DNA from: Engelhardtia mirabilis
GTDB lineage: Bacteria; Planctomycetota; UBA1135; GCA-002686595
NCBI RefSeq assembly: GCF_007748095.1
Contig: NZ_CP036287.1
Coordinates: forward strand, 3,619,448-3,651,447
Reading direction: 5' to 3'
Length of the DNA stretch: 32,000 bases
Part shown: positions 5,372 through 27,508 of the stretch, piece by piece
How positions within the stretch are numbered: the first letter of the stretch is position 1
Layout of the letters: each line of letters starts with the position of its first letter
The notes under the pieces: generated by a model
Database searches by the model: none
What the model was told of the DNA's origin: nothing
Seen by the model: only the letters and a program-made list of their open reading frames with translations
Position numbers and translations under genes: made by a program

Positions 5372-5439
5372 TCGACACCGACTGGCCGCCGGTGCCTGCA
5401 ATGGCAGTTCCGCCGGCGGCTCCAGCGGTGGCTCTCACG

Positions 5440-5467
5440 GCCGGCGAATCCGACGGGATTCGCCGGC
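5440..5467 (+). terminator. perfect 12-bp stem / GACG-loop hairpin downstream of glnN
   Basis: GCCGGCGAATCC-GACG-GGATTCGCCGGC, 70 nt after the glnN stop. Only a weak T-run follows (tgtgtccgtt). Confidence 0.4.
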
Positions 5468-5478
5468 TGTGTCCGTTC

Positions 5479-5516
5479 GGGCCGGATGTGCCCCTTTGGG
5501 CCGGCTGTGCCCCTTT
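5479..5516. repeat. 2 x 19-nt tandem direct repeat
   Basis: gggccggatgtgccccttt / gggccggctgtgccccttt, adjacent copies with 1 mismatch. Confidence 0.6.
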
Positions 5517-5693
5517 GGGAGAGCAAACCGTTCGAGGGCATGGACCGTTAGGAGCGCCGGATCCACTCGGAGCGACGGTCACTGACGGGCCGCCCTGGCC
5601 TCGATCCCTCCCCAGCTCGAACTCCAGTTCCGAGTCGGACACTCCGACATCGAGCTGAACCAACTCCGCGCCGACGTGTGTGGCTCGAGGGAC

Positions 5694-7586: not shown

Positions 7587-10500
7587 ATGAAGGACCCGGA
7601 GATCTGGCCTCCCTGGCTCGTCCGTATTCGCGCTCAGCAGGGAAACGAGGAGGGAGTCGGCGCTGGTCTGCTGATCGCCCCCGACCTCGTCCTCACCGCG
7701 TGGCACGTGGTGAACGTCGACGGCAAGTACCGTGGCACGGCGACGTCGGGCGGGACCCCGATGGCCGCGGCCAGGATCGACCTGGAGATCGGAGGCAAGC
7801 ACCGCCGGTCCATCCCGACCCCCCACCAGCGGCATGTGTCCTTCGCCGACAAGCCCGTCGACGACGAAGGCCAAGGCCGCGACTACGACCTCGCGCTGGT
7901 CCGGCTCGAAGAGGACCCGGTCCCGATCGATTCGGGCGACCTCCTTCCGATCGCCCGCGGTGTGCGACGACTCGAGTACCTGGCCCTCGGTGACCTCGGT
8001 CCGGACGAGCCCTTCCAGGTCGTAGGGTTTCCGGGTGGGAGCCTGCGCACGAAGCGTTTCGACGACGGTGCCCCCGACCCGGAGCGTGCCGGCGACGAGT
8101 TCTACGAGGTCCACCTGGGCCACCGAGTTCCCGAGGGCTACAGCGGCGGACCCATTCTGGCCGAGGTCGACGGCCAAGCTCTGTGCCTGGGGCTCGCGAG
8201 CCTCGGTGGAGCCACGGTCGGCTCTTCGGTCCAGACCTTCTCGGGAGCGATCATCGAGTTCCTCGATCAACAGAAGGTCCTTCGACGCGAAGGCGATCGG
8301 CTTCAGGTACCGACCGAGGACCTCGGCCGATTGCTCCTGCGCAGGCCACTCGAGTGCATCGCGGAACGCAACGACCGGCTTCCGCCGATCTTGTCCCGGT
8401 CCGCCCGCAAGGAGTGGAAGCTGCACGACCTGTTCCAGGAGCGGATCGTCGTGGACCGGGCAGCGACGGGCGGTGGCGACAGTGACGGTAACGCGAAGGC
8501 CGGTGGCCTGAGGGAGTTGGTGGATTGGACGCCCACCGTCGACTCGCCCCCGCGATGGGTCCTGCGAGGCGCGGGGGGAACCGGCAAGACGACTCTCCTG
8601 CGCCACCTCGCCTTCGAGCTGGCCCGCGAGGCGAATCAGGCCGGGGATGGCGCAGCGCTGCCACCGGTGGCCATCTTCCTGCGCCTGCCCCTCATCGTCC
8701 GTCGAGGGCCCGACTGGAGAGCGGCGCTGTTCGACGAGCTGAGAGATCGCGTGGATCGTGCTGCGATCCTCACGAGGGCGCTCAGCTCGCGCGTTTCCGA
8801 ACCCCGGATCCTGCTGCTGCTCGACGGGCTCGACGAGGTCGACGCCGGAGAAGTGACCGAGAACACCATCTCGCTCCTGCTTCAGGGCCTGCCCGATCAC
8901 CTCCCCGGAGTCGGCCTGGTCGTGGGCACTCGCCCGACGGGCTTCGACGACCGAGAGCCGGCGCTCACGCGACACTGGAACACCGCTTCGGTCGAGCCCC
9001 TGGATCGAGATCACCAGATCCGACTGGTCACCGAGGTGTCGAAGGCGATCGGCCGGCCTTGCTCAGAGAAGGCGACCGCCGCATGGGTCCATCAGATCAG
9101 TCGGGACGAGCGATTCGCCGACATCCGCGGCAACCCACTCTGGTTGACGCTGGCCGCCCTCGCCGTGGACCCGGAGACGGGGGCTCCACCGCCGTCCATG
9201 TCGGGCCTGCTCGCCAAGGCAGTCGACCACCTTGTAATGGGCATGCACCGCGGCGACCTCGAGCCCAGAGCTCGCCGCAGACGTACTCCCGTGGCAGGTC
9301 CGATCCCCAGCGCGGCCCGTCCGGTCTTGGGAACGATCGCACTCGCCATGACCCTCCAGCGTCAGGACGAACTCCGCTTCGACGACCTGGTCGAGGTCTG
9401 CAAGAACCTCCGCAAGAGAGCGGACCACGACGTCCGAGGCAGCGATGAACTCTGGGCTCGGTTGACGGAAGCCTGGGAATTGCTCGAGGACGATTCGGAG
9501 GAGAGCATCCTCGATCAGCTTTCGCTCGGCACCGATATCCTGAGCCCGCTCGAGGAGGACGGCGAACAAGTGGAAGACGGGGGATCCGACGCCGACGAGC
9601 TCTGGTCCTTCAGACATCGGACCGTGAAGGAGTTCCTCTCTGCCGATCAGCTCCGCCGCATGCTCGAAGGCGACGACGCTCCTCACGCCCAACAGCTGAT
9701 CGAGGCAGGCCTCGACGCCGACCTCGAGGGCTCGGTCCGGCACTGGGCCGGACCTGCGGCCCTTCTCGTCGAGATGCTCGACGACGCGACCGGGGCGGAA
9801 CGCGTGCTCCGGTGCCTCGCACCGAGGGATCCCGAGGCCGCTCGCCGCGCCCTGCTAGGAAGACCGAACGCCACGGTGGGCTCGATCCACATCGTCTTGG
9901 CGTCGCTCGAAAAGGAAGGGGACCGCGCGGCGGTGATCGAGCAGATCGATCGGCTGATCGAGGATCGTCAGGAGGCCTTCGATCTCCTGCGAAGCCTCGG
10001 CCTCGATCCCCGGATCCGAGCGGACCTGTACTTCGTCGACGAAGCACTGCTGGCCTTCGGAGTGCGGCACGAGGATCTCGCGGACGAGGCCGATGCCGCG
10101 AGACTGCGGATCTACGAGGAGCTGCCGGTCGAGCCGACGTGGCGTGCACCGTTCGAGCGGACGTTCGGGGATCCGGGGGTGCCCCTGTGGCGACCGGTAA
10201 CGCGGCACCTGACGTTCGGTTACGGCGATCGCGAGCTGGAGCAGGTGACGGAGCAGCCGTTCCAGATCTCGGCGGTTCCGGTGACGGAGGAGATGTACCG
10301 GATATTCGACCCGCACGATGATCAGCGGAAGTCGGAGCCAGGTCTCCTTCCGGCGCGCTCGGTCAGTTGGTGGGGTGCGATGGCCTTCTGTCGCTGGGCC
10401 GGAGCGAAGCTCGGTTTCGGTCTCGCCGGGAGCCTGCCGACAGAGCGTCAGTGGGAGTGTGCCGCGCGGGCCGGGACCGAGAGCGACTACTGGTTCGGCC

Positions 10501-10811
10501 CCGAGGCGCTCGACGAGCATGGGTGGTATGGGCAGAACTCTGAGTCTCGTGCCCACGATGTCGCGACTCGGCCGCCGAACGGCGACCGGCCCCAGCAGCC
10601 CAACCCGAACGGCCTTTTCGATGTCCACGGAAACGTCTGGGAGTGGTGTGTGGACCTCTTCGGCCGCGACGGCCCGAGGCGCGTGTTGCGCGGCGGTTGC
10701 TTCTGGTACGCGGCCGCGAGCTGTCGCTCGGGGTTCCGCTACTGGGACCACCCGGCGGACCGCGACCGGCTCCGGGGCTTCCGCGTCGTCCTCCCGGCCG
10801 ACCTTCGATGA
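7587..10811 (+). CDS. trypsin-like serine protease / NACHT (STAND) NTPase / FGE-sulfatase (C-type lectin fold) protein; DGR target 1
   Basis: ATG at 7587, 1074 aa. S1 triad motifs LTAWHV, DLALVRL and GYSGGP. Walker A GAGGTGKTT (about nt 8570-8600) and Walker B LLLLDGLDEV (about 8810-8840). NACHT-end FRHRTVKEFL. C-terminal SUMF1/FGE motifs RQWECAARAG, HGWY, NPNGLFDVHGNVWEWC and RVLRGG...GFRVVLP. VR1 lies at the 3' end. Confidence 0.92.
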   Translation: MKDPEIWPPWLVRIRAQQGNEEGVGAGLLIAPDLVLTAWHVVNVDGKYRGTATSGGTPMAAARIDLEIGGKHRRSIPTPHQRHVSFADKPVDDEGQGRDYDLALVRLEEDPVPIDSGDLLPIARGVRRLEYLALGDLGPDEPFQVVGFPGGSLRTKRFDDGAPDPERAGDEFYEVHLGHRVPEGYSGGPILAEVDGQALCLGLASLGGATVGSSVQTFSGAIIEFLDQQKVLRREGDRLQVPTEDLGRLLLRRPLECIAERNDRLPPILSRSARKEWKLHDLFQERIVVDRAATGGGDSDGNAKAGGLRELVDWTPTVDSPPRWVLRGAGGTGKTTLLRHLAFELAREANQAGDGAALPPVAIFLRLPLIVRRGPDWRAALFDELRDRVDRAAILTRALSSRVSEPRILLLLDGLDEVDAGEVTENTISLLLQGLPDHLPGVGLVVGTRPTGFDDREPALTRHWNTASVEPLDRDHQIRLVTEVSKAIGRPCSEKATAAWVHQISRDERFADIRGNPLWLTLAALAVDPETGAPPPSMSGLLAKAVDHLVMGMHRGDLEPRARRRRTPVAGPIPSAARPVLGTIALAMTLQRQDELRFDDLVEVCKNLRKRADHDVRGSDELWARLTEAWELLEDDSEESILDQLSLGTDILSPLEEDGEQVEDGGSDADELWSFRHRTVKEFLSADQLRRMLEGDDAPHAQQLIEAGLDADLEGSVRHWAGPAALLVEMLDDATGAERVLRCLAPRDPEAARRALLGRPNATVGSIHIVLASLEKEGDRAAVIEQIDRLIEDRQEAFDLLRSLGLDPRIRADLYFVDEALLAFGVRHEDLADEADAARLRIYEELPVEPTWRAPFERTFGDPGVPLWRPVTRHLTFGYGDRELEQVTEQPFQISAVPVTEEMYRIFDPHDDQRKSEPGLLPARSVSWWGAMAFCRWAGAKLGFGLAGSLPTERQWECAARAGTESDYWFGPEALDEHGWYGQNSESRAHDVATRPPNGDRPQQPNPNGLFDVHGNVWEWCVDLFGRDGPRRVLRGGCFWYAAASCRSGFRYWDHPADRDRLRGFRVVLPADLR
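10669..10803 (+). repeat. DGR variable repeat VR1
   Basis: 135 nt colinear with the TR. By hand alignment, 15 mismatches fall at TR adenines and 1 elsewhere. Encodes RVLRGGCFWYAAASCRSGFRYWDHPADRDRLRGFRVVLPAD. Confidence 0.9.
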
Positions 10812-10828
10812 TCGATCTTTGAGATGTG
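10805..10828 (+). repeat. post-VR conserved 24-nt element, copy 1
   Basis: TCGATGATCGATCTTTGAGATGTG directly after VR1. It contains the stop codon and is absent after the TR. Confidence 0.8.
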
Positions 10829-11136
10829 TTCGAATGTGGACCCGAACGGACGTTCCATTCCTCGCGCGGCCCTCGATGACCGAACAGAATTCCGGTCGTC
10901 CCGTTGTTCCGGTCGTCTGCGACCGATCGGTTCTCGAACGCCCCAGATCCCCGGGAACCGAGCCTCCGGTCCCCGCCCAGAAATGGCCCGTTGTGACCGG
11001 CCGACCCGACATCCGGAAGCAGGACGACCCTCAACGGCCATCAGGTTCCGGATCGGGCCTACCCCCTCCACACCCGAGGAGCGCGGCTCGGCCACCAAGG
11101 TCAGCCCGACGCCCTCGACCGCTCTGACGGCTTTCC

Positions 11137-12162
11137 TCAGACGCACAGGACGCTTCCCAACGCTCCTGCCCAACCCTCAGCAGGAATGGCCGGCCCGGTC
11201 CCACGAACGTACCTGGCCGCCCGTGCGCCCATCCGCCTCGCGTGCCTCGGGAGGGGTTCGATCCCGCTGCGGGTTACCAAGTGTCCGAGGGCATCGAGGC
11301 GACCGCTGCAGGATCGCGGGCGAGCCCCGGGGCGCTTCAATCGCAGACCGAGTCGCTCGTCGAGGTACCGCCCCACGTCGTCCCGCGCGGCCCGCAAGGC
11401 CGACCTAGAGTCACCGAACAGGAACAGATCGTCGACGTAGCGGACATAGCCGGGCACGCGAAGCTCGCGCGCGACATGGCTGTCGAGGCCCAGCGGCACA
11501 ACGTGGGCCGCCAAGACCTGGCTCGTGTACGCACCGATGGGCAGTCCCTCGCCGGGCGGCGGCCAATCGGGATCCAGTCGAGCGAAGGCTCGTACGTGAC
11601 GATCGTCGTAGAGGCCCCGCCCGGACTCCAGGATCCGATCGACGACCTGCAGGAACCGCTCGTCGCGGATCCGGCGACGGAGCAGGGACCGGACCAGCTC
11701 GATCCGGATGCTCGGGAAGTAGCTTCGAACGTCCAGATGCACGAACCACGCATGACGGCGGACCAGCTCCAGGATCCGGAGCAACGCGCGATGGGTTCCC
11801 CGTCCGGTGCGGCAGGCGTAGTCCGCGTCCGATAGGGATCGCTCGAGCACAGCCTCGACCAGGCGCGCGACCGCCGTGTGCACCACTCGATCCAGGACCG
11901 ATGCTCGTGCGATGACCCGGGGCTTGGGATCGTGCAGGAACAAGAGATCGAAGGCCCCGTGCCGCCAACGGGCGTCCACGAGCGCGGCACGCAACTCGCG
12001 AAGCTCGGATTCCCGGCGGAACAGGAAGGTCGCGACATCCGCCCGCCGCCGCTTCCCCCGGACGGTGACCCGCGCAGCCTCGTCGAGCCGGTCCTCGTCG
12101 ACCAGCTGCTCGAAGAGGCCGCCCGTGGTCCTGGTCAAGGTGCCCCTCCGGACGCTCGCCAC
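11137..12162 (-). CDS. DGR-type reverse transcriptase
   Basis: 341 aa with a GTG start. RT motifs HLDVRSYFPSI, LPIGAYTSQVLAAH (the DGR-specific IGxxxSQ) and YVRYVDDLFLF (YxDD). Lies 124 nt downstream of the TR. Confidence 0.92.
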   Translation of the reverse strand: MASVRRGTLTRTTGGLFEQLVDEDRLDEAARVTVRGKRRRADVATFLFRRESELRELRAALVDARWRHGAFDLLFLHDPKPRVIARASVLDRVVHTAVARLVEAVLERSLSDADYACRTGRGTHRALLRILELVRRHAWFVHLDVRSYFPSIRIELVRSLLRRRIRDERFLQVVDRILESGRGLYDDRHVRAFARLDPDWPPPGEGLPIGAYTSQVLAAHVVPLGLDSHVARELRVPGYVRYVDDLFLFGDSRSALRAARDDVGRYLDERLGLRLKRPGARPRSCSGRLDALGHLVTRSGIEPLPRHARRMGARAARYVRGTGPAIPAEGWAGALGSVLCV

Positions 12163-12286
12163 CGGCGGTGACTACGGGAACGGAGGGGCGAGGTCGGACG
12201 AGCGGGCCGGAAGGTCCGGCTGCGACGTCCGCGGGGAGGGGCCTGATCGCGGATCCGCTCGCCTCGCGAGCTCCGTCCGCGGGCTG

Positions 12287-12421
12287 GGTCGGCCGGGAGG
12301 ACGACGCGGAAGCCCTGGTTCCGGTTGCGGTTCGCCGGGTGGTTCCTGTTCCGGTACCCCGAGCGACAGTTCGCGGCCGTGTTCCAGTAGCTACCGCCGC
12401 GCATCACGCGCCTCGGGCCGT
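12287..12421 (-). repeat. DGR template repeat (TR)
   Basis: A 135-nt non-genic copy of the target 3' ends. It reads RVMRGGSYWNTAANCRSGYRNRNHPANRNRNQGFRVVLPAD, with seven AAC codons and about 25 adenines. It sits between avd and the RT and lacks the 24-nt post-VR element. Confidence 0.9.
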
Positions 12422-12795
12422 GGGGCCCCTGCCCCTGCACCGGACTTGGAGAATCGCCGGGAGCTGCGGCCCCATCCACCGAGCATGCGGCCGATCGTGT
12501 CGAGCTCCGCCGAAGCGAACCGCATCCGTCGCTTCGTCAGGTAGCCCAGCGACTCGGCGAGCCGCAGCAGCACCCGGAGGCGGACCACACCTCGATCGGC
12601 GGCGCGACGATGGTCGTCCCTCTCGGCCGGGAAGGTCAATGCTATCGAGACATCCGCGACGAGGTCCTGGACGGCGTCGGCGACCCGTCCGGCCGAGCAC
12701 ATGGCTTCGGGTTGCGGCCATCGCGCGACCTCGGCCAAGAGCCAGGTCGCGAGGTCATGGCTGCGTACGTAGAGAGGCGCGCGTCGCCAAGTCAC
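12391..12795 (-). CDS. avd: accessory variability determinant (Avd, four-helix-bundle family)
   Basis: 134 aa with a GTG start overlapping the upstream stop (GTGA). PLYVRSHDLATWLL at the N-terminus and LDTIGRMLGGW near the C-terminus are Avd hallmarks. The 3' end overlaps the TR. Confidence 0.8.
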   Translation of the reverse strand: MTWRRAPLYVRSHDLATWLLAEVARWPQPEAMCSAGRVADAVQDLVADVSIALTFPAERDDHRRAADRGVVRLRVLLRLAESLGYLTKRRMRFASAELDTIGRMLGGWGRSSRRFSKSGAGAGAPRPEARDARR

Positions 12796-13382
12796 CGCTC
12801 GCGCCTCCCGAGCTTCTCGCTCCAGCGGATGAGGCCCCCCAAGGTCGGAAGGACCTCCGACTCAATCCGCGCGGCCCAGGCGAGCTGCTCCCCCTCCGGC
12901 TCGGCGTCCTGGATCAACAGGAGGCCCACGCAACGGCTCATCAAGCACCGGGCGCGGCGGAGGGCCTCGCCCTTACGATCCGCGTCGTAGGCGTGGACGC
13001 CCTCGCAGACGGCCAGCAGTCCGGACAGGAGCGCGCGCTCCGCAGCGGACGACGATGATCCTGTCGATGCCGCGGTTGCTCGCATAGCCGCGAGAACCGC
13101 GCGCCCACGACGAAAGCACTCGACGTCCTCCACGGATCGCCGACGGTCACCGTGCCGCACGGCCGCCCTTGAGGGAAGGGCCTCTTCGACCGCCTCGCGC
13201 ACATCGTCGGCTCGTCGTTGGAGCGACTGACGCTGATCCTCGGTCAAGGGCAGGCTCTCGCGCCGGATGCGCCAGGACTTGCCATGCTTGGCCCCCCGCA
13301 ACTCACCCCGTGCGAGCCGTGCACGGACGGCGCGCGGGCTCACCCCGAGAACGACGGCAGCTTCGCGAACGCTCAGTTCCAT
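12792..13382 (-). CDS. excisionase/MerR-type HTH protein with helical C-terminal domain (DGR-associated)
   Basis: MELSVREAAVVLGVSPRAVRARLARGELRGAKHGKSWRI is a typical N-terminal HTH. The C-terminus ...LPTLGGLIRWSEKL faintly echoes the Avd C-terminus. Alternative ATG starts at 13505 and 13517. Confidence 0.65.
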   Translation of the reverse strand: MELSVREAAVVLGVSPRAVRARLARGELRGAKHGKSWRIRRESLPLTEDQRQSLQRRADDVREAVEEALPSRAAVRHGDRRRSVEDVECFRRGRAVLAAMRATAASTGSSSSAAERALLSGLLAVCEGVHAYDADRKGEALRRARCLMSRCVGLLLIQDAEPEGEQLAWAARIESEVLPTLGGLIRWSEKLGRRER

Positions 13383-13732
13383 CCCGGTGGATCGAACCGG
13401 CTGGATGGATCGAGGTTCCGATCCAGAAGACGATCTCGTGGACGTCGTGGAACTCGTGACCTCCTCGAGGATGCCGATGACCGGATCGAGGGACGAAGTG
13501 GCCATCGACGGCCGCATGAGTAGCCATCAATGGCCGCAACTGGCCGTCGCGACGTGTGAGCGGTCAGTGCGGGAGGTCGAACCGAGTCCAATCGGAAACG
13601 ACACCGGCACGCGACGGCCGAACGGCGCAGGGGTCGCCTCGGTCTCGGGATCCCACCGGAACTGGGTCCGGCCACGTGGTGCCGAGAATCGGCACTGCGC
13701 GTCCCCTCGGCGACGCTCGGGCCGCTCGAAGA

Positions 13733-13756
13733 CACATCTCAAAGATCGATCATCGA
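13733..13756 (-). repeat. post-VR conserved 24-nt element, copy 2
   Basis: The reverse complement reads TCGATGATCGATCTTTGAGATGTG. It contains the stop codon of target 2. Confidence 0.8.
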
Positions 13757-16700
13757 AGCTCGGCCGGGAGGACGAGGCGGAAGCCCAGGTTCCGGTTGCG
13801 GCCCGCCGGGTGGCTCCTGCTCCGGTACCCCGAGCGACAGCCCGCGGCCGTGTCCCAGTAGCTACCGCCGCGCAACACGCGCCACGGGCCGTCGCGGTCG
13901 AAGAGGTCCAGACACCACTCCCAAACGTTCCCGTGGACATCGAGAAGGCCGTTCGGGTTGGGCTGCTGGGGCCGGTCGCCGTTCGGCGGTCGAGTCGCGA
14001 CATCGTGGGCACGAGACTCAGAGTTCTGCTCATACCACCCATGCTCGTCGAGCGCCTCGGGGCTGAACCAGTAGTCACCCTCGGTCCCGGCCCGCGCGGC
14101 ACACTCCCACTGGCGCTCGGTCGGCAGGCTCCCGGCGAGACCGAAACCGAGCTTCGCTCCGGCCCAGCGACAGTAGGCCATCGCACACCACCAACTGACC
14201 GAGCGCGCCGGAAGGAGACCTGGCTCCGACTTCCGCTGATCATCGTGCGGGTCGAAGACCCGGTACATCTCCTCCGTCACCGGAACTGCCGAGATCTGGA
14301 ACGGCTGCTCCGTCACCTGCTCCAGCTCGCGATCGCCGTAACCGAACGTCAGGTGCCGCGTTACCGGTCGCCACAGGGGCACCCCCGGATCCCCGAACGT
14401 CCGCTCGAACGGCGCACGCCACGTCGGCTCGACCGGCAGCTCCTCGTAGATCCGCAGTCTCGCGGCATCGGCCTCGTCCGCGAGATCCTCGTGCCGCACT
14501 CCGAAGGCCAACAGTGCTTCGTCGACGAAGTACAGGTCCGCTCGGATCCGGGGGGCGAGGCCGAGGCTTCGCAGGAGATCCAAGGTCTCCATACGATCCT
14601 CGATCAAGTGCTCTACCTGAGAGATCACGGCCCCCCGATCCTCCTCCTCCTCGAGCGATGAAAGGACGATCATGACAGCATTCGTCGAAACCGCTCGACT
14701 CGCCATCAACGCGCGTCTCGAGATCGCCGGCGCATCCTCGAGGCTCTCGAGCAGGACTTCGACTTCCCCTTCGACGAGTCGTTCCGCCAGCATGCCGAGC
14801 GGCTCGGACCAGAAACGCGCGACGTCGTCCTCTCCATTGTCGCTCTCAGCGTCACCATCCATGCTCCCCTGTTCTGCGCCAACCAGCTCGAGCCAGTCGC
14901 ACCAAGAACGCAATCCGGCCGGACCCTGCGAACTCAACCAGCCTTCATTCGTGCTCAACCTGAGCGCACTCAGGATGCTTCGCGCATTGTCAGCCAGACG
15001 AACGTCGTCAGCATCGATCTGCGAGAGCGCTCGGTCGAACCGCTGCAGAAGTGCACGACGCACAGCCCCAGCGGCCGACCGCGCGCGAGCAAGAACATCG
15101 TCCTGCCCCCCTGCCGCCGTCCACCTCTCCCAGAGCCATTCCGACGTCAGAAACTCGAGCGTCGACCGGTGCCAGAAGCGCCAGTCCTCGTCAATGTCAT
15201 TTCCGCGTCGTCGGATCCTCCGCTCTGGCGGTGTCAGGATCGAATTGCGTTCGAGCCACCTGAGGACGTCATTCGGAGCGCAACGTTCCTTCAGATCCAG
15301 GAGGTCCCGGCGAAGGTCGGTCCATGGCGTCGGAGCGCTTCCATCAGCGCCGCGCTCCGAGTCCTTCAGATCCTCGAGCCATGTCTCCATGACGCTGCGA
15401 GGGACCTGTACCAGGCCCTCCGAAGACATCCGGTGGGCCAACCATCGGAGCACGGGCCGGACGGACCGTGGAAGCGCCTCGGGCTGCACCGAGTCGTCGT
15501 CCGCCACTTCGTGGATCTGCCGCTGATCGCGGCGGTGCTTGCCCGCCTCCAGTCGACGGAGGATCGCGTCGAGCAGGTCGACCCGCGAGCCTGGCTCACG
15601 GTCCTCCTCGAAGATCACGATGGCTGCCATGGTCAACCACAGCGGGTTCCCGCGTTCCTCGTCGTAGCGGGCATCGACTTGGATCCGGTCGACCCAGTCC
15701 TCGAGTGCCGCCGCGTCCATCGTCGGCTTCGCGGGGCCGCCGAACTTCCGGTGCTGCCCCACCAGCTTGACGAGCAATTCCTTCTGCCGATCGGCACCCA
15801 GAGGTTCGACGCTCGCCAAGCTCCACGCTTTGAACTGGGCGCTCCGTTCAAGGTAGCGTGACGGTCTGGTTCCGAGCGCCACGGGCGTTCTGGGCAGCTC
15901 GCGCGGGATCGAAGCGAGCAGGGCCCCCACGTTCGGCCGCTCGGCCTTGCTCACCTCGTCGTAGCCGTCCAGCAACAGCACCAGCTCACCGCGAGGATCT
16001 TGCGCGCCGAGCAGCTCCCCCGTGTAGTGGTCGACCTTTTTCGTGACGTATTGGACGAGGTCTTCGAACGGACGAGTGCCGACGTTCTTCAGGTCCGGTA
16101 GACGGACGAGCAAAGCGACCCTGTCGCCTTCGTCGATGGGACGATCTGAGCCGGTCGCGAGGCGAGCGTCCGCGAGCCGCTTGGCCAGCTGGCGAAGGAT
16201 CGTCGTCTTGCCCGTTCCGGCTTCACCGCGAAGGATGATCCGGGGTTGATCCGATTCCGCGGAGGGTGAGTTCGAGCCGGGCCCGGACGGGACCTCACTT
16301 GCCGGTGACTCCTCGTCGAACGCATCCTCGAGCCCGAGGTGTCGCGCGAGGGACGTCTGTCCATGCACCGCGGCGCGAACCGCCTCCCCGTCCCGCGGAA
16401 CCTCCAAGGTGACGCGATCGACGAAGACGTCGTCGAGGCTGAGATCGGGTGCCCATGGGAGGACGTCGCACTCGGCCGAGAGCCGACCGAGAAACGGTTT
16501 CAACAGCAGTGAGCGAAGATCGGGTGAGCTCGGTAGCGCGAGCGATTCGCCCCCGCCGTCCCGCTCCTCGATCACCCGCCGAGCGTTGTCGAGGAACGGT
16601 CCGACGGTGCCTGCCAGCAGGTAGCCCGAGAACGGGTGATTGGACCCGCCGACGATGGTGATCCCGACCCAGTGGAGATCCGATCCGACACGCAGCAGCA

Positions 16701-17310
16701 GGGGCCCTCCACTGAAGCCGCCGTGGACCCTCCCGTGTTCGGCCCCAAGATCACGAGCCTCCCGATGGAGGTGGTCAGGGTCCCAGCCCTCGAGCCGTGC
16801 GCTCTGGTCGTCTGGGCTCTCGACGCCGTCGGGGAAGCCCCAGATCGCGAACGACGAACCGCGGGCGACCAGCGCTCGGGCCTCGAGCTCACCAAGACCA
16901 CGGGTCAGCGACGCAACGGCATCCCCCTCGGCCAGGCCAGGAACCCTCAGCAGTGCCAGGTCCACCGAGCGCCCGACCCCAGAGAGGTCGCCCGACGCGA
17001 ACAGGACGTCGGCCGACGACGGGTCGTACGGACCGATCGAGTGAATGGACGGTTCGGAGTCCAGTGCCGTGGGGTGATCGGCAAGTGTCACCACGACGCC
17101 CTTGGCAGGATTCGGCGACTCGGACCGGCCACCACTGAACGTCCCGGTCCGGCTGAGAACGTGCCAGGCGGTCAGAACCCATCCCGGCGCGACGATCACG
17201 CCGGAACCGAAGTTGTCATCAGTCGTCGTCTTGCCGTTCTTGGTCTTCTCGACCCGGCACTGGATGCGAACCAGGGATGGCACCGCCGAAGGCCAATCGA
17301 GATCAGGCAA
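13750..17310 (-). CDS. trypsin-like serine protease / NACHT (STAND) NTPase / FGE-sulfatase protein; DGR target 2 (cis target upstream of avd-TR-RT)
   Basis: 1186 aa. The apparent start is TTG at 17308-17310; the GTG at 17281-17283 is the alternative. Triad motifs LTAWHV, DLALLRV and GFSGGP. Walker A GEAGTGKTT (about nt 16195-16230) and Walker B LVLLLDGYDEV. WRFWHRSTLEFL. The C-terminal FGE domain is nearly identical to that of target 1. Confidence 0.9.
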   Translation of the reverse strand: MPDLDWPSAVPSLVRIQCRVEKTKNGKTTTDDNFGSGVIVAPGWVLTAWHVLSRTGTFSGGRSESPNPAKGVVVTLADHPTALDSEPSIHSIGPYDPSSADVLFASGDLSGVGRSVDLALLRVPGLAEGDAVASLTRGLGELEARALVARGSSFAIWGFPDGVESPDDQSARLEGWDPDHLHREARDLGAEHGRVHGGFSGGPLLLRVGSDLHWVGITIVGGSNHPFSGYLLAGTVGPFLDNARRVIEERDGGGESLALPSSPDLRSLLLKPFLGRLSAECDVLPWAPDLSLDDVFVDRVTLEVPRDGEAVRAAVHGQTSLARHLGLEDAFDEESPASEVPSGPGSNSPSAESDQPRIILRGEAGTGKTTILRQLAKRLADARLATGSDRPIDEGDRVALLVRLPDLKNVGTRPFEDLVQYVTKKVDHYTGELLGAQDPRGELVLLLDGYDEVSKAERPNVGALLASIPRELPRTPVALGTRPSRYLERSAQFKAWSLASVEPLGADRQKELLVKLVGQHRKFGGPAKPTMDAAALEDWVDRIQVDARYDEERGNPLWLTMAAIVIFEEDREPGSRVDLLDAILRRLEAGKHRRDQRQIHEVADDDSVQPEALPRSVRPVLRWLAHRMSSEGLVQVPRSVMETWLEDLKDSERGADGSAPTPWTDLRRDLLDLKERCAPNDVLRWLERNSILTPPERRIRRRGNDIDEDWRFWHRSTLEFLTSEWLWERWTAAGGQDDVLARARSAAGAVRRALLQRFDRALSQIDADDVRLADNARSILSALRLSTNEGWLSSQGPAGLRSWCDWLELVGAEQGSMDGDAESDNGEDDVARFWSEPLGMLAERLVEGEVEVLLESLEDAPAISRRALMASRAVSTNAVMIVLSSLEEEEDRGAVISQVEHLIEDRMETLDLLRSLGLAPRIRADLYFVDEALLAFGVRHEDLADEADAARLRIYEELPVEPTWRAPFERTFGDPGVPLWRPVTRHLTFGYGDRELEQVTEQPFQISAVPVTEEMYRVFDPHDDQRKSEPGLLPARSVSWWCAMAYCRWAGAKLGFGLAGSLPTERQWECAARAGTEGDYWFSPEALDEHGWYEQNSESRAHDVATRPPNGDRPQQPNPNGLLDVHGNVWEWCLDLFDRDGPWRVLRGGSYWDTAAGCRSGYRSRSHPAGRNRNLGFRLVLPAELR
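13758..13892 (-). repeat. DGR variable repeat VR2
   Basis: 135 nt colinear with the TR. 10 mismatches at TR adenines and 2 non-A mismatches, both in the last 25 nt. Encodes RVLRGGSYWDTAAGCRSGYRSRSHPAGRNRNLGFRLVLPAE. Confidence 0.9.
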
Positions 17311-17313
17311 GCT

Positions 17314-18651
17314 TCACGCCCCCGGGATGCGGTCGAGGATCTCGCGCGCCCATTGTTTCGAGGTCACCGATCCGTGCTCCCCAACGTGCTCCAGCCCGGC
17401 AATCCAACCGGCACGATGGGACTCCGGCACCTCGCTCCAGTTGTCCGCATCGGCCAGAACGTGAGCCAGTGCCAGCCCGCACAGCTGGACCTCGAACTCC
17501 TCGTCGTAGAGCAGGTGGGAGAACGCCGCGTCATCGGGCAGCTCGAGTTTCTCGCGAAACTTCTCGAGTAGCTCCTCACTGCCGACCGCACCGCCGCCGT
17601 CGACGACGACGATCTCACCGTGGCCATCGGAGCTACCGCGCTGAACCGCCGTTCCCCTGGCAGGACCTTGATCCTGAATAACATCGGTCGCCCTGAGTCC
17701 TCTGCGGTTGAACCGGTTCAGCGACTCGATGAAGATCGATGCAGCGAGCATCGCAACCGGCTTCCCGCTCCAGGATTCGCCGCGCGGACCGTTTTCGAGC
17801 GAACGAGGTCCCGACAACGCTTTCCAAACGGCCGCTTCGAGCAACGCCGGGGCCTTCTCGATCGTGGCGTCCGAGATGAAGATGCTCTTCGACGCGCCCG
17901 CCTTCCGAGGTCGGCGCGCGTAGCCGATGTCGATGACTCGAGCCGTCACCAGCCGCAGGACAGTCTCGAGCAGCTTACTCCCAAGGATCGTCTGCACCAC
18001 GAGGCCGGGACCGCTCTCAGGGATCGGGCACAGACCCCAGCGCATCATCGGATTCTTTACGACCTCGTCGTCGTCCGCGCCCTCCTTCTTCCTCTGCTCC
18101 CCGGTCCAGAAAGTGCGGCCGGTCTCGATGTCCGGCAGCGCACGCCGCGGTCCACGAAGGACCGCCCGTAGCTGGGACCCGACAGATTCAAAGGGGTCGA
18201 ACTTCAGAGCCTCTACGGCCACCCTCCAGTCGTCACTCGACCGCGCCGCCCGCTGGAACTGGTCCATCCGCTTCTTCTCGGACTTCTGGCTTCCGTATCG
18301 GAACAGGCTCTCGTCGATCCAATCCTCGGAGTAGGGGTGGAGTGCGAGCAACAGCGCGTGACCGCGAACTCGATCGTCACTGGTTCGGGCCGACAGCGTC
18401 CACTCTCCCCGATCCAGTTCCTCGGGGAACGGATAGGGCTTCGCGTGGTACTCCATCTCGACGTCGTCCACGAAGACGTAGTTGCCATCGGCCGCCTCGT
18501 CGTAGGCGATGAGCGTCGGGGAGATCGGATGCCGCGAGGCGCTCTCGCTGACGGGCTCCATGGGGAACTCCGTCATCCCCCCGGGGGGCGGATCGGGCGG
18601 CTCGGGCGGATCTCCGGCTTCGTACAGCGGACGGACGTCGAACTCGCTCAT
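17314..18651 (-). CDS. hypothetical protein, translationally coupled partner of DGR target 2
   Basis: ATG at 18649-18651 (MSEFDVRPLYE...), 445 aa; the longest ORF extends to 18738. High GC3 and no motif I recognise. Its stop at 17314-17316 lies one codon before the target 2 start, in the same frame. Confidence 0.7.
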   Translation of the reverse strand: MSEFDVRPLYEAGDPPEPPDPPPGGMTEFPMEPVSESASRHPISPTLIAYDEAADGNYVFVDDVEMEYHAKPYPFPEELDRGEWTLSARTSDDRVRGHALLLALHPYSEDWIDESLFRYGSQKSEKKRMDQFQRAARSSDDWRVAVEALKFDPFESVGSQLRAVLRGPRRALPDIETGRTFWTGEQRKKEGADDDEVVKNPMMRWGLCPIPESGPGLVVQTILGSKLLETVLRLVTARVIDIGYARRPRKAGASKSIFISDATIEKAPALLEAAVWKALSGPRSLENGPRGESWSGKPVAMLAASIFIESLNRFNRRGLRATDVIQDQGPARGTAVQRGSSDGHGEIVVVDGGGAVGSEELLEKFREKLELPDDAAFSHLLYDEEFEVQLCGLALAHVLADADNWSEVPESHRAGWIAGLEHVGEHGSVTSKQWAREILDRIPGA

Positions 18652-18810
18652 GGCACTCGGAAACGATCGGGTGATTCGGATCGGCCGGGTCCACAGGCAA
18701 CCTCCTCCCGGCTCCGTGGTCGAACCTAGCGCCGCCAACGGGGTCCGGGAAGGCCCTAGCCGGCGTCGACACGCCGCTTGTCAGGCTGCTAGTCTCCCGA
18801 GACCCGGCCC

Positions 18811-21800
18811 ATGCTCCCGAGCACAGACAGATCTCGACCCTACGTCCTGCGTGTCACCTCCGACGACGGGAACCCGGCGGCGGGGATCCTGGTCTCGGAG
18901 AACTATGCGGTGACCTGCTGGCACGTCGCCAACGGCAGTGGAAAGTTCAGCGAGAAGGTCCCCAACTCCCGTGAGGCGGCATGGGGGCTCTGCGCCGGCG
19001 GTCGGCCGGCCGAGGTCGTGGCCTGGGGCGACCTCCCTGGGATCGGCTATGAGGTAGACGTGGCTCTGCTGAAGCTCGAGGGTGCGCCAGCGAGTCTCGA
19101 GAGTGCCGACCTTGCCCTGGCGTACGACTCCCGACTCTTCGACCAGCTCCTCGACAGTGTTTCCTACCTCGAGGTGGAGGGGTTCCCTCGCCACTCGCCG
19201 ACCTCGCACGTCGAATCCTGCCGGCCACACAAGGGATCGGGATCGTCGAGTACGAGCCGGGGTGGCCAGGTCACCGAGTTCGGCCTCTTCGCCCGCGTCC
19301 ACGAGGGAGTCAGCGGCGGACCCGTGGTCGCCGGACGTGGAGGCGAGGAGGTCTGCGTCGGGATGGCCTGTCTCGGCAGCTCGAGGTCGCTGCAGATGGC
19401 GGCCGTGTCGTCGGGTGAACTGCTGGCGCTCCTCGAGCACCACTTCGACGGAGAGCTTCCCCATGCGGTCCGAACCAGGCCCCTCGACGACTGGCTCATC
19501 GACCATGGCGTGATCGAAACGCGCGGGTCCTATCTCCGTGCACTGAGGGCTCGGGTCGAAGAGGACCACGACTTGCTCAGGATGCTCGGGGTCGATGACC
19601 TCGCCGACGAGTTCTTCGATCGGGTCTACGTCCGACTCGAGGTCGGAGTCAGTCCCTCGTTCGCGCAGCGTCTAGCCGATCTAGGCGATGAAGAAGACGC
19701 CAGCATTCCCCCGTCTGGTGTCCGCCTAGACCAACTGCTGTCGATCCCGCCTGCCCGGTTCGGCATCGCCGGGCCGCGATTCGTCCTGCGCGGCGAACCA
19801 GGCTCGGGCAAGACCACGATCCTGCGCCAGCTCGCCTGGTCCCTCGCCGGCGACGACGACGCCGCCTGGACGCCGGTAAGGATCGGGCTCCCCGACTTCG
19901 CGCGCTGGAGAGCGGGGCAGAATCGAAAGGGCGACGCCTGGGACAAGCTGCTCGACTACCTCGAGGAGCAGCAGGACATTGCCGATGCTCGCCGCGAGGC
20001 GCTCGTGGCCGAGCGCGAGCATGGGCGTCTGCTGCTGCTCCTCGACGGGCTCGACGAGGTCCGCGGCGAGTTGAGAACCACCACTCGCTCCTGGCTCGCG
20101 AACCTCTCCGAACAGATGGGCTCGTCCGCCATCGTCGTGGCGACGCGGACGATTCCGTATCGCAAGCCCGCGGGCGGCTACGTGGAGGCGGACGTCGAGC
20201 CCATGGGAATCGCTCAACAGAAGAAGTTCCTGAGCGCCTGGATCGGCGACGAGGGGGCGGCCGAGGATCACATCAAGCGCTGGGCCGACCTCCCCCACAG
20301 CCGATTGTCGCTTCTGGCCGGGAACCCGCTCTGGTTGACGTACTTCGGCTTGCTCTTGCGCCGTGGCGAGACGCCCGATGAGTCTCGCAGCGCACTCTAC
20401 GAGCAGGTCCTCGAGCTGCTCCTCTCCGGTGAGTTCCAGGATCCTCCGAAGAAGAACCCGAATCCGGCCGTGATGCGCGCTGGGCTCGTGTTCCTGGCGG
20501 TCCAGATGAGCAAGAAGGGCGAGACAGCAGTTCGCAAGTCGGACCTCGACGCCCTATTCCAAGAGCAAGGCGTCGAGACGGACGTCGCCGTCCGCGCCGT
20601 GCTCAACGAATGGAGCCGACGCCCTGACGATTTCCTCCAGGACGTGCAGGCGATCACGGGGATCATCGGTCGATACGGCGAGAAGGAGGGGAGGAACTGG
20701 CGTTTCTGGCACGGCCAGCTTCGTGAGGTCCTGGTCATGATTTGGCTGCGGAGCCTCACCCGCGACGAGCAGCTCGCCGAGGCCGCCGCGCTGGCGGAGG
20801 ATCACCTCGGCTTCTTCGCCGAACCGTTCGCGCTCCTGGTCGGCACGGATGAGCTGGCCGACAAGGACGAGATGATCGAGCGGCTCGTCGAGCACAATCC
20901 GGTCCTGGGGCGCAGAGTGCTGGCCAGTGCTACAGGAGTGTCGCCGTCGACGGTCGAGAAGGTGCTGGGGCTCGATTCGTCGGACCCTGAGCGTCGCGGC
21001 GAGATTCTCCTGGACCTGCCGAACATCCTGGGTCGCGGGGAGGGGGCACGGGCCGCAACGATTCAACTCGTCGAACGGCTGTGGATGGCGAGCCGGTCCA
21101 GCGAGGAGGAGATGTGGGCGGACTGCTACCACCTGGACGAGCTACTCGTCGCGCTCGAGGAGGAACCGGGTGAGCTAGTGTCCACTCGTAGAGCCCTGTA
21201 CTTCCGGCGCTTTGGACAACCGGACCGTCCGACCTTGAAGGAGTTGTTTCCGCCGATCCACGGGCTCACCCCCTTTCCTCGGATCGATCCCGGTTCATTC
21301 GCAATGGGTGACGGGGACGCTCCCAGTCGCCAGCAGGTGAAGATCCCAACCCCATTCCGGCTCGGGGCAACTCCCGTCACCGAGAGCCAGTTCAGCTTGA
21401 TGTCTGGCAGGGAGATCGAGACGAGTAGCCGTAAGCCGAAGGGCGAGATCAACTTCTTTGGAGCCATGCTGTACAGCAGGTTCCTCGGTTGGGCGATGGG
21501 ATCGGATCAGCCGGGCGACCTGCCGACCGAGGCTCAGTGGGAGTACGCAGCGCGAGCAGGCAACGAGGGTGACTACTGGTTCAGCCCTGGGGCCCTGGAC
21601 GACCACGGCTGGTACGAAGGCAACTCGGGAGGTCGGGTCCACGACGTCGCCACTCGCCCCCCGGATGGCGAGGAGCCGCAGCAGCCGAATCCGAACGGCC
21701 TGTTCGACGTGCACGGGAATGTTTGGGAGTGGTGCCAGGACCTTCTCGGCGGCGCCGGCCCGTGGCGCGTGATGCGCGGCGGTAGCTTCTGGGACTCGGC

Positions 21801-21912
21801 CGCGAACTGTCGCTCGGGGTACCGGATCAGGAACCACCCGGCGAGCCGCCTCTGGGACCTGGGCTTCCGCGTCGTCCTCCCGGCCGACCGGAGCTTGGCC
21901 ATCGATGATTGA
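18811..21912 (+). CDS. trypsin-like serine protease / NACHT (STAND) NTPase / FGE-sulfatase protein; DGR target 3
   Basis: ATG at 18811, 1033 aa. Triad motifs VTCWHV, DVALLKL and GVSGGP. Walker A GEPGSGKTT (about nt 19795-19825) and Walker B LLLLLDGLDEV. C-terminal FGE motifs AQWEYAARAG, HGWY and NPNGLFDVHGNVWEWC. VR3 lies at the 3' end. Confidence 0.9.
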   Translation: MLPSTDRSRPYVLRVTSDDGNPAAGILVSENYAVTCWHVANGSGKFSEKVPNSREAAWGLCAGGRPAEVVAWGDLPGIGYEVDVALLKLEGAPASLESADLALAYDSRLFDQLLDSVSYLEVEGFPRHSPTSHVESCRPHKGSGSSSTSRGGQVTEFGLFARVHEGVSGGPVVAGRGGEEVCVGMACLGSSRSLQMAAVSSGELLALLEHHFDGELPHAVRTRPLDDWLIDHGVIETRGSYLRALRARVEEDHDLLRMLGVDDLADEFFDRVYVRLEVGVSPSFAQRLADLGDEEDASIPPSGVRLDQLLSIPPARFGIAGPRFVLRGEPGSGKTTILRQLAWSLAGDDDAAWTPVRIGLPDFARWRAGQNRKGDAWDKLLDYLEEQQDIADARREALVAEREHGRLLLLLDGLDEVRGELRTTTRSWLANLSEQMGSSAIVVATRTIPYRKPAGGYVEADVEPMGIAQQKKFLSAWIGDEGAAEDHIKRWADLPHSRLSLLAGNPLWLTYFGLLLRRGETPDESRSALYEQVLELLLSGEFQDPPKKNPNPAVMRAGLVFLAVQMSKKGETAVRKSDLDALFQEQGVETDVAVRAVLNEWSRRPDDFLQDVQAITGIIGRYGEKEGRNWRFWHGQLREVLVMIWLRSLTRDEQLAEAAALAEDHLGFFAEPFALLVGTDELADKDEMIERLVEHNPVLGRRVLASATGVSPSTVEKVLGLDSSDPERRGEILLDLPNILGRGEGARAATIQLVERLWMASRSSEEEMWADCYHLDELLVALEEEPGELVSTRRALYFRRFGQPDRPTLKELFPPIHGLTPFPRIDPGSFAMGDGDAPSRQQVKIPTPFRLGATPVTESQFSLMSGREIETSSRKPKGEINFFGAMLYSRFLGWAMGSDQPGDLPTEAQWEYAARAGNEGDYWFSPGALDDHGWYEGNSGGRVHDVATRPPDGEEPQQPNPNGLFDVHGNVWEWCQDLLGGAGPWRVMRGGSFWDSAANCRSGYRIRNHPASRLWDLGFRVVLPADRSLAIDD
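21755..21889 (+). repeat. DGR variable repeat VR3
   Basis: 135 nt colinear with the TR. 11 mismatches at TR adenines (counting the boundary base) and 1 non-A mismatch. Encodes RVMRGGSFWDSAANCRSGYRIRNHPASRLWDLGFRVVLPAD. Confidence 0.9.
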
Positions 21913-21925
21913 TCTTTGAGATGTG
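21902..21925 (+). repeat. post-VR conserved 24-nt element, copy 3
   Basis: TCGATGATTGATCTTTGAGATGTG, 1 mismatch to copies 1 and 2. It is displaced 12 nt from the VR3 end by an insertion and contains the stop codon. Confidence 0.8.
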
Positions 21926-25183: not shown

Positions 25184-25450
25184 GTGACAGACTCGAACCA
25201 GTTGACCAGAGATCAGCGCAGCGCCCTGGAGTGGGCCAAGCGCGCCCACATCCTGCGAGCGGAGCGCACGACCGAGGACGTGGGCTACCGCAGCCCCGAC
25301 GGCGGGCCCCGGCACGGCAGCGAAGTGGTGCGGGAGTTGATCGCCAGGGAGTTCTTGGCCCGCCGGGATGACGGATCGGTGCGGATCACCCTGCTTGGGA
25401 TCCACGCGGTCAACAAGGGCGGCGGCGACGACGGCGGGAGGGCGGCGTGA
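25184..25450 (+). CDS. small phage-like hypothetical protein
   Basis: GTG start preceded by GGAGCAGGAG. The stop overlaps the next GTG start. Confidence 0.55.
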   Translation: MTDSNQLTRDQRSALEWAKRAHILRAERTTEDVGYRSPDGGPRHGSEVVRELIAREFLARRDDGSVRITLLGIHAVNKGGGDDGGRAA

Positions 25451-26076
25451 GCGAGTACCACAAGATCCAGACGGTATGGCTCCGCGACCCCGAGACGAAT
25501 CACAAGACGCTCCTGGAGGGGCGCTGGGCGAAGCCCGAGTTCGAGTACCTGCGAAAGAACTCCTGGACCTTCACCGAGAAGATCGACGGGACCAACGTCC
25601 GGCTGATTCGCGCGAACGGCTGCGACGTCCGGGGCAAGACCTTTCGCGCGCAGCTCCCTCGTGGAGTCTTCGAGGCCGGCGCGAGGATCGTGAAGAGCTC
25701 AGCCTTCGCTCGCCTTCCGGAGGAGATGGTTCTCTACGGCGAGGGCTACGGGGCGAAGATCCAGAAAGGTGGTGGCAACTACCGCCAGGACCAGGGAATC
25801 GTCCTCTTCGATGCCTGGTGTGGGATGTGGCTGGAACGGTCGAGTCTCGAAGAGATCGCGGAGTCTCTGGGGCTGGAGGTCGCCCCCGTGATCGGCTCGG
25901 GGCGGCTGAGCATCGCGATCGACTGGTGCCGCAGCGGCGATCTCAAGTCCCGCTGGGGTGACTTCCCCGCAGAGGGCATCGTTGCCCGCCCCGAGGTCGA
26001 GATGCTCAACCGCCGCGGCGAGAGGGTCATCACCAAGATCAAGTGCCGGGACTTCCGCGAAGGGAGGGCGGCGTGA
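25447..26076 (+). CDS. ATP-dependent RNA ligase family protein (stand-alone nucleotidyltransferase domain)
   Basis: Motif I TEKIDGTN (KxDG adenylylation lysine), then YGEGYG, EGIVARP and KIKCRDF, in the order of covalent nucleotidyltransferase motifs. 209 aa. Confidence 0.8.
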   Translation: MSEYHKIQTVWLRDPETNHKTLLEGRWAKPEFEYLRKNSWTFTEKIDGTNVRLIRANGCDVRGKTFRAQLPRGVFEAGARIVKSSAFARLPEEMVLYGEGYGAKIQKGGGNYRQDQGIVLFDAWCGMWLERSSLEEIAESLGLEVAPVIGSGRLSIAIDWCRSGDLKSRWGDFPAEGIVARPEVEMLNRRGERVITKIKCRDFREGRAA

Positions 26077-27080: not shown

Positions 27081-27508
27081 AGCGCGCCGAGCACGTCGCG
27101 AAGACCCTCGCGTTCCTGGGCGAGTGCTACCCCGGGCTCCGCAACGGCGGGCCGGCGCAGCTCGCGGCCTGGTCCGCGATCCTCGGGAGCTACTCCCTGG
27201 CGCAGCTCCTCGAAGCGGCCGAGGCCGTGGCGCGGACCCACACCTACGGGATCCCGGCGCCCGCGCACCTGGTCGAAGCGATCGAGGGCCGGCTCGTCTG
27301 GAGCCAGGTCCCCTACCGCGACATCTGGGGTTCGCTCCGGGTCGACGGCAACGGCCGGCGGGTGACCGAGGCGAAGCTGGTCCGCCGCTTCCCGGACGGG
27401 CGAGAGGAACCCGCCGACGATGCGCTGGACGACGAGCGCCCGATGCTGCCGCCTGGCGCGAAGACCGCGGGGATGCTCGCGGCGGAACTGGCTGGGGGTG
27501 ACTCGTGA
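27077..27508 (+). CDS. phage-like hypothetical protein
   Basis: The ATG overlaps the upstream stop (ATGA). 143 aa with native-like codon usage. Confidence 0.6.
   Translation: MKRAEHVAKTLAFLGECYPGLRNGGPAQLAAWSAILGSYSLAQLLEAAEAVARTHTYGIPAPAHLVEAIEGRLVWSQVPYRDIWGSLRVDGNGRRVTEAKLVRRFPDGREEPADDALDDERPMLPPGAKTAGMLAAELAGGDS

Follow-up and report, generated by a model that had tools for sequence, protein, structure and literature searches.

Proteins that combine a NACHT domain with a C-terminal sensor and an N-terminal effector are known in bacteria, and some of them are linked to diversity-generating retroelements (DGRs). Doré et al. 2024 (PNAS, PMC10907252) described clade 5D DGRs of multicellular bacteria, which have two targets with a central NACHT or nSTAND1 domain and a CLec (C-type lectin) domain; some of these targets carry an N-terminal peptidase or TIR domain, and a role as antigen sensors was proposed, stated there as untested. 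Kibby et al. (bioRxiv 10.1101/2022.07.19.500537 / Cell 2023) identified FGS/FGE as one of two 'antigen receptor-type' C-termini of bNACHT proteins and trypsin as one of the effectors, and Kaur et al. 2020 tied DGR/FGS domains to NTP-dependent conflict systems. Here, we analyzed a 32,000-nucleotide stretch of the Engelhardtia mirabilis genome (assembly GCF_007748095.1, contig NZ_CP036287.1, positions 3,619,448 to 3,651,447 of the forward strand), hereafter the window, in which a DGR with one template repeat (TR) and three variable repeats (VRs) lies among three paralogous STAND proteins, designated as P1–P3. Our preferred reading, which we regard as probable, is that this chromosomal DGR rewrites 17 codons on the CLec tips of three cytoplasmic NLR-like STAND proteins, and that these proteins are protease receptors that are triggered by foreign ligands and cause cell death or arrest.

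The Engelhardtia locus resembles clade 5D in being a cellular DGR with at least two paralogous targets, a central NACHT domain, a single VR-bearing CLec domain at the C-terminus, and an aggregate-forming host, the comparison being one of target architecture. It differs from clade 5D in that it has three targets with a protease fused in cis in each of them. Engelhardtia is absent from the accessible part of the supplementary tables of PMC10907252, and a keyword search of its main text did not find gene X, the helix-turn-helix (HTH) cassette gene, or the post-VR motif, all described below ('HTH', 0 occurrences). With the bNACHT and Avs proteins, the locus shares the tripartite effector-NACHT-sensor layout and a fold that matches NLRC4 and NLRP3. 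Unlike the Engelhardtia sensors, the sensors of the bNACHT proteins tested by Kibby et al. are germline-fixed, and their text draws no link to DGRs ('diversity-generating', 0 occurrences). The trio is not new as a class, as Doré et al. and Kibby et al. have already described it computationally. What is new here is a conserved orphan partner, gene X; a clade-wide HTH gene and post-VR motif; and a culturable host. An earlier note, made by a model from the letters of this DNA alone, had referred to surveys of DGR- or FGE-bearing STAND proteins in multicellular bacteria and knew of no such trio driven by a single TR that had been characterized experimentally. We found no report in the literature of an experiment on any DGR-diversified NACHT protein. 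The only paper found that names E. mirabilis makes no mention of retroelements. The note's view of a receptor that can be re-drawn and that carries a protease as effector stands in its structural part, which profiles, fold, and repeats support, but the novelty that it implied was overstated for a class that had already been surveyed.

The domain composition of the three receptors was consistent throughout. In each paralog, Pfam placed Trypsin_2, NACHT, and FGE-sulfatase in this order, all above the gathering thresholds: Trypsin_2 at 30-37 bits (cut-off, 27.6), NACHT at 41-48 bits (cut-off, 26.7), and FGE-sulfatase at E values of 1e-25 to 1e-31. When the N-terminal profile of P1–P3 was aligned with MASP-3 and chymotrypsin, His40 (LTAWHV), Asp101 (DLAL), and Ser186 (GxSGGP) corresponded to the catalytic triad His57/Asp102/Ser195. 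The triad, the Walker A (GxGKT[TS]) and Walker B (LLLDGxDE) motifs, and a GNPLW(L/I)T motif were invariant in 7 family members from at least four organisms, namely the three paralogs and, from other organisms, four full-length homologs at 27-35% identity. Invariance of the catalytic motifs at this level of identity argues for selection that maintains both the protease and the NTPase (P-loop) activities. The S1 protease-NACHT-FGE order and the intact triad and Walker motifs, which the earlier note had read from the letters, were thus recovered by profile searches and alignment.

An AlphaFold2 (AF2) model of P1 had a mean predicted local distance difference test (pLDDT) score of 68.7, and the NACHT, helical, and CLec parts mostly scored 80-96. 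By Foldseek, this model matched NLRC4 (4kxf) with an E value of 6e-10 over ~600 columns, as well as NLRP3, NAIP5, and NLRP9, and this match to NLRC4-type proteins indicates that the segment taken in the earlier note as a helical linker is an NLR-type helical region. The lectin-fold sensor was likewise recognized: the C-terminus of the model matched the DGR variable protein TvpA with an E value of 7e-8, and TvpA was also the best PDB sequence match of the paralogs, with an alignment that runs across the VR. The VRs sit on the TvpA-equivalent C-terminal face of the CLec fold. TvpA of Treponema denticola and Mtd of a Bordetella phage share with the Engelhardtia proteins a CLec/FGE-type fold, a VR at the extreme C-terminus, and an AAC-rich TR. 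They are, however, ligand-binders of the cell surface or virion that have neither an NTPase nor an effector, whereas the CLec domain of Engelhardtia is the sensor arm of a cytoplasmic signaling ATPase. Neither a signal peptide nor a transmembrane segment was predicted in the proteins, and the receptors are accordingly predicted to be cytoplasmic.

The DGR cassette is intact, and the three VRs bear the signature of adenine mutagenesis. The motifs of the reverse transcriptase (RT), the adenine pattern between the TR and VRs, and an Avd gene that adjoins the TR and RT were all found, as expected of a DGR. Among the 24 adenines of the TR, 15 were mismatched in VR1 and 10 each in VR2 and VR3, while the 110 other positions contained 1, 2, and 1 mismatches, respectively (Fisher p = 7e-13, 3e-7, and 5e-8 for VR1, VR2, and VR3). 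All 24 adenines are located at codon position 1 or 2 and none at position 3; adenine changes in the TR reach no stop codon, and ~7.6e13 protein variants are possible. The window contains exactly one TR and three VRs, in agreement with the claim that a single resident DGR drives the trio. The claim that the VR forms the last ~45 codons of each protein fits VR1, which starts 46 codons ahead of the P1 stop codon, but not VR3, which ends 8 codons ahead of that of P3. The first 30 nt (5') of the TR overlap the 3' end of the Avd gene. On the minus strand, the genes are arranged in the order X, P2, HTH, Avd, TR, and RT, and we regard these as the core operon because the TGA of X lies only 4 nt ahead of the P2 start. 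P1 is convergent with RT and P3 is divergent from X, both being extra targets outside the operon. The features are listed in Table 1; gene X, the HTH gene, and the post-VR motif among them do not appear in the earlier note.

Table 1. Features of the DGR and receptor island of E. mirabilis (positions within the window)
Feature	Position	Strand	Description
Paralog 1 (P1), 1074 aa	7587..10811	+	S1 protease, NACHT, NLR-type helical region, CLec (FGE-sulfatase fold); 100% identical to NCBI E. mirabilis P0001
VR1, 134 nt	10670..10803	+	In P1; 15/16 TR mismatches at TR adenines
Post-VR element of P1	10805..10828	+	TCGATGATCGATCTTTGAGATGTG; includes stop codon
DGR reverse transcriptase (RT), 341 aa	11137..12162	-	RVT_1 E 4.6e-10 (Pfam); LPIGAYTSQ and YVDD
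Template repeat (TR), 134 nt	12287..12420	-	24 adenines in 17 codons, 7 of which are AAC
Avd, 134 aa	12391..12795	-	Pfam bAvd E 8e-9, 36.4 bits (cut-off 40); NCBIfam DivGenRetAVD E 1.4e-13, below cut-off
HTH_17 / excisionase-family protein, 241 aa	12792..13517	-	Pfam HTH_17; TIGR01764; overlaps Avd start by 4 nt
Post-VR element of P2	13733..13756	-	Just 3' of VR2
Paralog 2 (P2), 1186 aa from TTG 17310 or 1177 aa from GTG 17283	13750..17310	-	P1-like architecture (Pfam)
VR2	13758..13891	-	In P2; 10/12 TR mismatches at TR adenines
Gene X, 445 aa	17314..18651	-	'Hypothetical protein' (NCBI); TGA stop 4 nt ahead of P2 TTG
Paralog 3 (P3), 1033 aa	18811..21912	+	P1-like architecture (Pfam); identical to NCBI QDU67651 and QDV01977
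VR3	21756..21889	+	In P3; 10/11 TR mismatches at TR adenines
Post-VR element of P3	21902..21925	+	One C-to-T difference; 12 nt gap from VR3 end

The start of P2 is ambiguous: it is either TTG at 17310 or GTG at 17283. Public records of P2 disagree as well, one giving 1177 aa from GTG 17283 and RefSeq giving 941 aa from an internal Met; the 941-aa version omits the whole protease domain.

The sensor modules of P1 and P2 are far more similar to each other than the remainder of the two proteins. The protease, NACHT, and helical parts are 31-47% identical, while the CLec domain upstream of the VR is 94% identical. This similarity is embedded in a 939-nt inverted repeat (9891-10829 on the plus strand and 13732-14670 on the minus strand), the two arms of which enclose the DGR cassette and, apart from the VR, are ~97% identical. 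We read this pattern as a sign that the sensor module of P1 and P2 recently underwent gene conversion. Since the 939-nt tract far exceeds the TR, it was not made by retrohoming. In principle, the inverted repeat could also invert the DGR cassette.

DGRs such as that of phage BPP-1 recognize their targets through cis elements at the 3' end of the VR, namely the initiation of mutagenic homing (IMH) sequence and a hairpin or cruciform downstream of it. In the Engelhardtia locus, the TR and VRs have in common a G/C-rich, adenine-poor 3' end. In addition, an A/T-rich 24-nt element with the consensus TCGATGAT(C/T)GATCTTTGAGATGTG occurs in three copies in the window, one 3' of each VR, where it includes the stop codon; the TR is not followed by a copy. 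In five related loci (L008, L009, L010, L015, and L016), VRs but never TRs are followed by a related core, GAT-N3-T-N-GAT(C)-N-T(T/A)GAG. This distribution makes the post-VR element a candidate for target recognition. Within one locus, the copies may reflect common descent of duplicated 3' ends, an account that is harder to sustain because the motif spans loci whose RTs are only 50-62% identical.

Gene X is coding-like (GC1/2/3 = 0.67/0.49/0.79), and its spacing from P2 suggests that the two genes are translationally coupled. In a metagenome-assembled genome (MAG) of Phycisphaeraceae (L001), a homolog of X (9009-10004; pairwise E value, 3e-8) lies directly upstream of a Trypsin-NACHT-FGE gene and overlaps its start. 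A Logan contig (L005) has a further homolog (9258-10014) in the position directly upstream of such a gene; identity is 44% across the first 103 aa (E value, 8e-14), and a second segment matches as well (E value, 7e-7). A groundwater Planctomycetota MAG (L007) encodes within its receptor locus a protein (4613-5677) that is 52% identical to the X homolog of L001, and L003 contains a weaker match upstream of an FGE-domain gene. In the sister DGR loci, where TIR or SIR2 takes the place of the protease in the targets, no match to X was found, suggesting that X travels with the protease and not with the DGR. We also considered whether X is kin to a similarly sized gene upstream of P1, but the latter encodes a fatty-acid desaturase and is unrelated.

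The position of X recalls the protease-effector modules. In PMC12642450, Pepco/Trypco with trypsin-Avs4 and EACC1 with caspase-Avs12 are described, in which an upstream effector is licensed by site-specific cleavage that requires the catalytic Ser; the protease sensors in that study include FGE domains and DGR-associated ones. Similarly, a bacterial gasdermin gene lies upstream of a protease-NACHT gene, and the gasdermin is licensed by cleavage (bioRxiv 10.1101/2021.06.07.447441). Gene X shares with these modules its place directly upstream of a sensor-fused protease, and this adjacency is kept across genomes. The locus differs from the modules in that X, at 445 aa, is outside the described effector families (Pfam and PADLOC gave no match of X to a Pepco/Trypco, EACC1, gasdermin, MBL, or alpha/beta-hydrolase family), and in that only one X stands for three proteases. 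Because the Pepco/Avs4 and EACC1/Avs12 pattern pairs an upstream effector with a protease-fused sensor, we consider X a candidate partner or substrate of the protease, possibly a protease-licensed effector.

The nearest metagenomic RTs, which are 50-62% identical to that of Engelhardtia, are encoded in loci with the shared layout target, HTH, Avd, TR, and RT. Where the contigs were long enough (L008, L009, and L010), a second, convergent target was located beyond the RT. In L008, 18 of the 21 mismatches between TR and VR are at TR adenines. The position of Avd between HTH and TR is kept in L008, L010, and L013. HTH homologs occupy the same position in L008, L009, L010, L013, L015, L007, and L001 with 36-59% identity, which is 43-59% in the loci of the nearest metagenomic RTs. 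Judged from these loci, the HTH gene is a conserved member of the cassette of this DGR clade, and it may be an accessory factor or regulator of the DGR beyond the textbook Avd-TR-RT set. The targets of the sister DGR loci are TIR-NACHT-FGE, SIR2-NACHT-FGE, TIR/SEFIR-kinase-FGE, and NACHT-FGE proteins. The shared sensor scaffold with swapped effectors suggests that this DGR lineage is dedicated mainly to NLR-like CLec sensors with interchangeable death-type effectors.

The cassette and the receptors do not always occur together. In L001, the region right after the Trypsin-NACHT-FGE gene (13964-14367) contains an HTH homolog that is truncated and an RT fragment of 44 aa but no TR; this decayed cassette indicates that the receptor family can persist once its diversifier has been lost. 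In neither L003 nor L005 was an RT found. We considered a triple repeat of 126 nt in L003 as a TR with two VRs and rejected it, as its differences are not adenine-specific and the repeat lies in the middle of the FGE domain; it represents a third FGE gene fragment.

To describe how widespread the architecture is, we searched 1.84 billion cluster representatives with a profile of the three paralogs. The full-length Trypsin_2-NACHT-FGE arrangement occurred in only four other clusters, while dozens of NACHT-FGE proteins had other N-termini and multi-FGE proteins were many more. A genome scan returned only two matches, both in Planctomycetota MAGs, and a scan of metagenomes with the protease-NACHT profile returned no relatives. 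From these searches, the protease-armed form appears rare and, among assignable genomes, confined to Planctomycetota; the scaffold itself appears common.

The window has a G+C content of ~69%, and the third-position G+C of the island genes (7587-21925) is 0.78-0.82, in comparison with 0.88-0.95 for the flanking genes, a hint that the DGR and receptor island as a whole was acquired horizontally. The left flank consists of housekeeping genes, including those for a type III glutamine synthetase and a fatty-acid desaturase. On the right (~25447-29360, plus strand), a phage-like RNA ligase, a DUF1376 'primosomal' protein, and a 646-aa C5 DNA methyltransferase are encoded, and this run of phage-like genes may be the remnant of a prophage or an integrative element. 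Neither an integrase nor a tRNA was seen in the window, and direct repeats of at least 11 nt flanking the island were not found. The host is assigned to Planctomycetota by NCBI, and 'Saltatorellota' has been proposed as an alternative phylum.

The mechanism that we propose would proceed as follows. A transcript of the TR would be reverse-transcribed with misincorporation at adenines, and the cDNA would replace a VR, with targeting probably relying on the repeat's G/C-rich 3' end and on the conserved A/T-rich post-VR element. The receptor would stay switched off as long as its CLec tip is unoccupied; capture of a foreign ligand, for instance a protein of a phage or mobile element or a glycan, would release autoinhibition. 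NTP-dependent oligomerization through the NACHT domain would then bring the N-terminal trypsin-like domains together and activate them by proximity, and the protease would cleave a latent substrate, the leading candidate for which is the upstream protein X. All three paralogs may share the single X, or the substrates of P1 and P3 may be different ones. The outcome would be the death or arrest of the infected cell, which would protect clonal aggregates, and the DGR would supply anticipatory receptor diversity of ~7.6e13 variants per receptor. The aggregate lifestyle of the host fits the published link of such systems to multicellular or aggregating bacteria.

Several observations weigh against this proposal. 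The defence function is a prediction from sequence. PADLOC finds no known defence family, and none of its models matches the paralogs beyond the P-loop. The protease domain of the P1 model is of low confidence (residues 1-184, pLDDT <50). No stable hairpin or cruciform was found 3' of the VRs, where the sequences fold no better than shuffled ones (z, +0.2 to +1.8). That X is a substrate is guesswork based on gene order. Pfam, PHROGs, PADLOC, and NCBIfam gave no match to X, a PDB profile search returned nothing at E values up to 5, and its AF2 model (pLDDT 37, from a 2-sequence alignment) is unusable; X is predicted, at low confidence, to be mostly helical. Moreover, an adjacent X is present only at P2, and P1 and P3 have no X of their own. 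Finally, none of the three receptor proteins differs between the two deposited genome records of E. mirabilis, which were compared through protein identity only, and this identity gives no direct sign of ongoing diversification.

Alternatively, the receptors may serve kin or self/non-self recognition and police contact, cytoplasmic exchange, or fusion in aggregates, like the HET-type NLRs of fungi. The host grows as large aggregates and seems to undergo cell fusion (bioRxiv 10.1101/817700), heterokaryon incompatibility is mediated by fungal NLRs (Kibby et al.), and the absence of a match to a defence system would be compatible with such a role. However, cytoplasmic receptors that lack a secretion signal would encounter the molecules of a partner only after fusion, and a random somatic repertoire provides no stable kin label. 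The bacterial relatives that have been characterized experimentally, bNACHT and Avs, are anti-phage. We therefore consider a function in kin recognition unlikely.

That the DGR is now dead, the VRs having been written in the past and the proteins being NLR-like sensors of fixed specificity, is quite unlikely given the state of the cassette. The RT open reading frame is full-length with intact IGxxxSQ and YVDD motifs, and the TR keeps its 24 adenines at codon positions 1 and 2 as well as its 7 AAC codons. With 1-2 non-adenine differences per 110 positions, the VRs appear to have been copied recently from the TR. The identity of the VRs in both deposited genomes would be expected of a dead element, but the two records have almost equal lengths and may be near-clonal, which would make their identity uninformative. 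Other points in favor of a relic are that the truncated HTH homolog and the 44-aa RT fragment of L001 show that such cassettes decay and that Avd scores below curated cut-offs.

A role outside biological conflict, a 'regulatory pathway tuning' in which a diversified sensor monitors variable environmental or endogenous ligands and the protease processes a regulator, has a precedent in a proposal of this type for cyanobacterial DGR targets (PMC7517822), and the operon does contain a gene for an HTH DNA-binding protein. On the other hand, the sister loci place TIR and SIR2, typical death effectors of defence systems (PMC10907252), on the same scaffold, and the NLR-type architecture together with the protease-plus-upstream-gene pattern matches characterized abortive-infection modules. 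Such a signaling role is, in our judgment, improbable.

The names that public databases give to the three paralogs, 'SUMF1/EgtB/PvdO family nonheme iron enzyme' or 'Ser/Thr kinase pkn1', mislead in both cases. The catalytic Cys pair of FGE is CxxxxC; in a weak alignment of P1 to the FGE of T. curvata (5nxl; GGSFLCHESYC in the enzyme and GGCFWYAAASC in P1), the first Cys is replaced by Tyr, and this position is a variable Asn codon in the TR. That the proteins are iron or copper enzymes of the SUMF1/EgtB/PvdO type or kinases, with an incidental similarity of the repeats, as the NCBI and UniProt names and weak sub-threshold NCBIfam matches to EgtB, SenA, and PvdO would have it, is scarcely credible, since these matches are far below the cut-off (e.g., 47.6 bits vs 360), the best PDB match is a non-enzymatic DGR variable protein, no kinase domain was found in the paralogs by Pfam, and the adenine-specific pattern has p <1e-6 in each VR.

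DGR-diversified NLR-like sensors are the closest proposed bacterial analogue of a somatically diversified immune receptor, and they have so far been known from comparative genomics only, mostly in uncultured or consortium-bound organisms. The Engelhardtia locus is compact and complete, with one cassette, three receptors, and one candidate substrate, and its host is an axenically cultured aggregate-former; it thus offers a reasonable test bed for DGR activity, the ligands of the CLec domains, protease-executed death, and X as a substrate. The post-VR motif and the HTH gene provide handles on how a DGR lineage recognizes several targets. We tentatively suggest, as a possibility that is less than probable, that X founds a family, so far undescribed, whose members are protease-licensed effectors, or regulators, and belong specifically to trypsin-armed NACHT-CLec receptors and that the locus is a self-contained, somatically diversifying intracellular immune-receptor system. 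If this is true, repertoire generation, ligand capture, and proteolytic execution could be reconstituted in the culturable strain DSM 103766.

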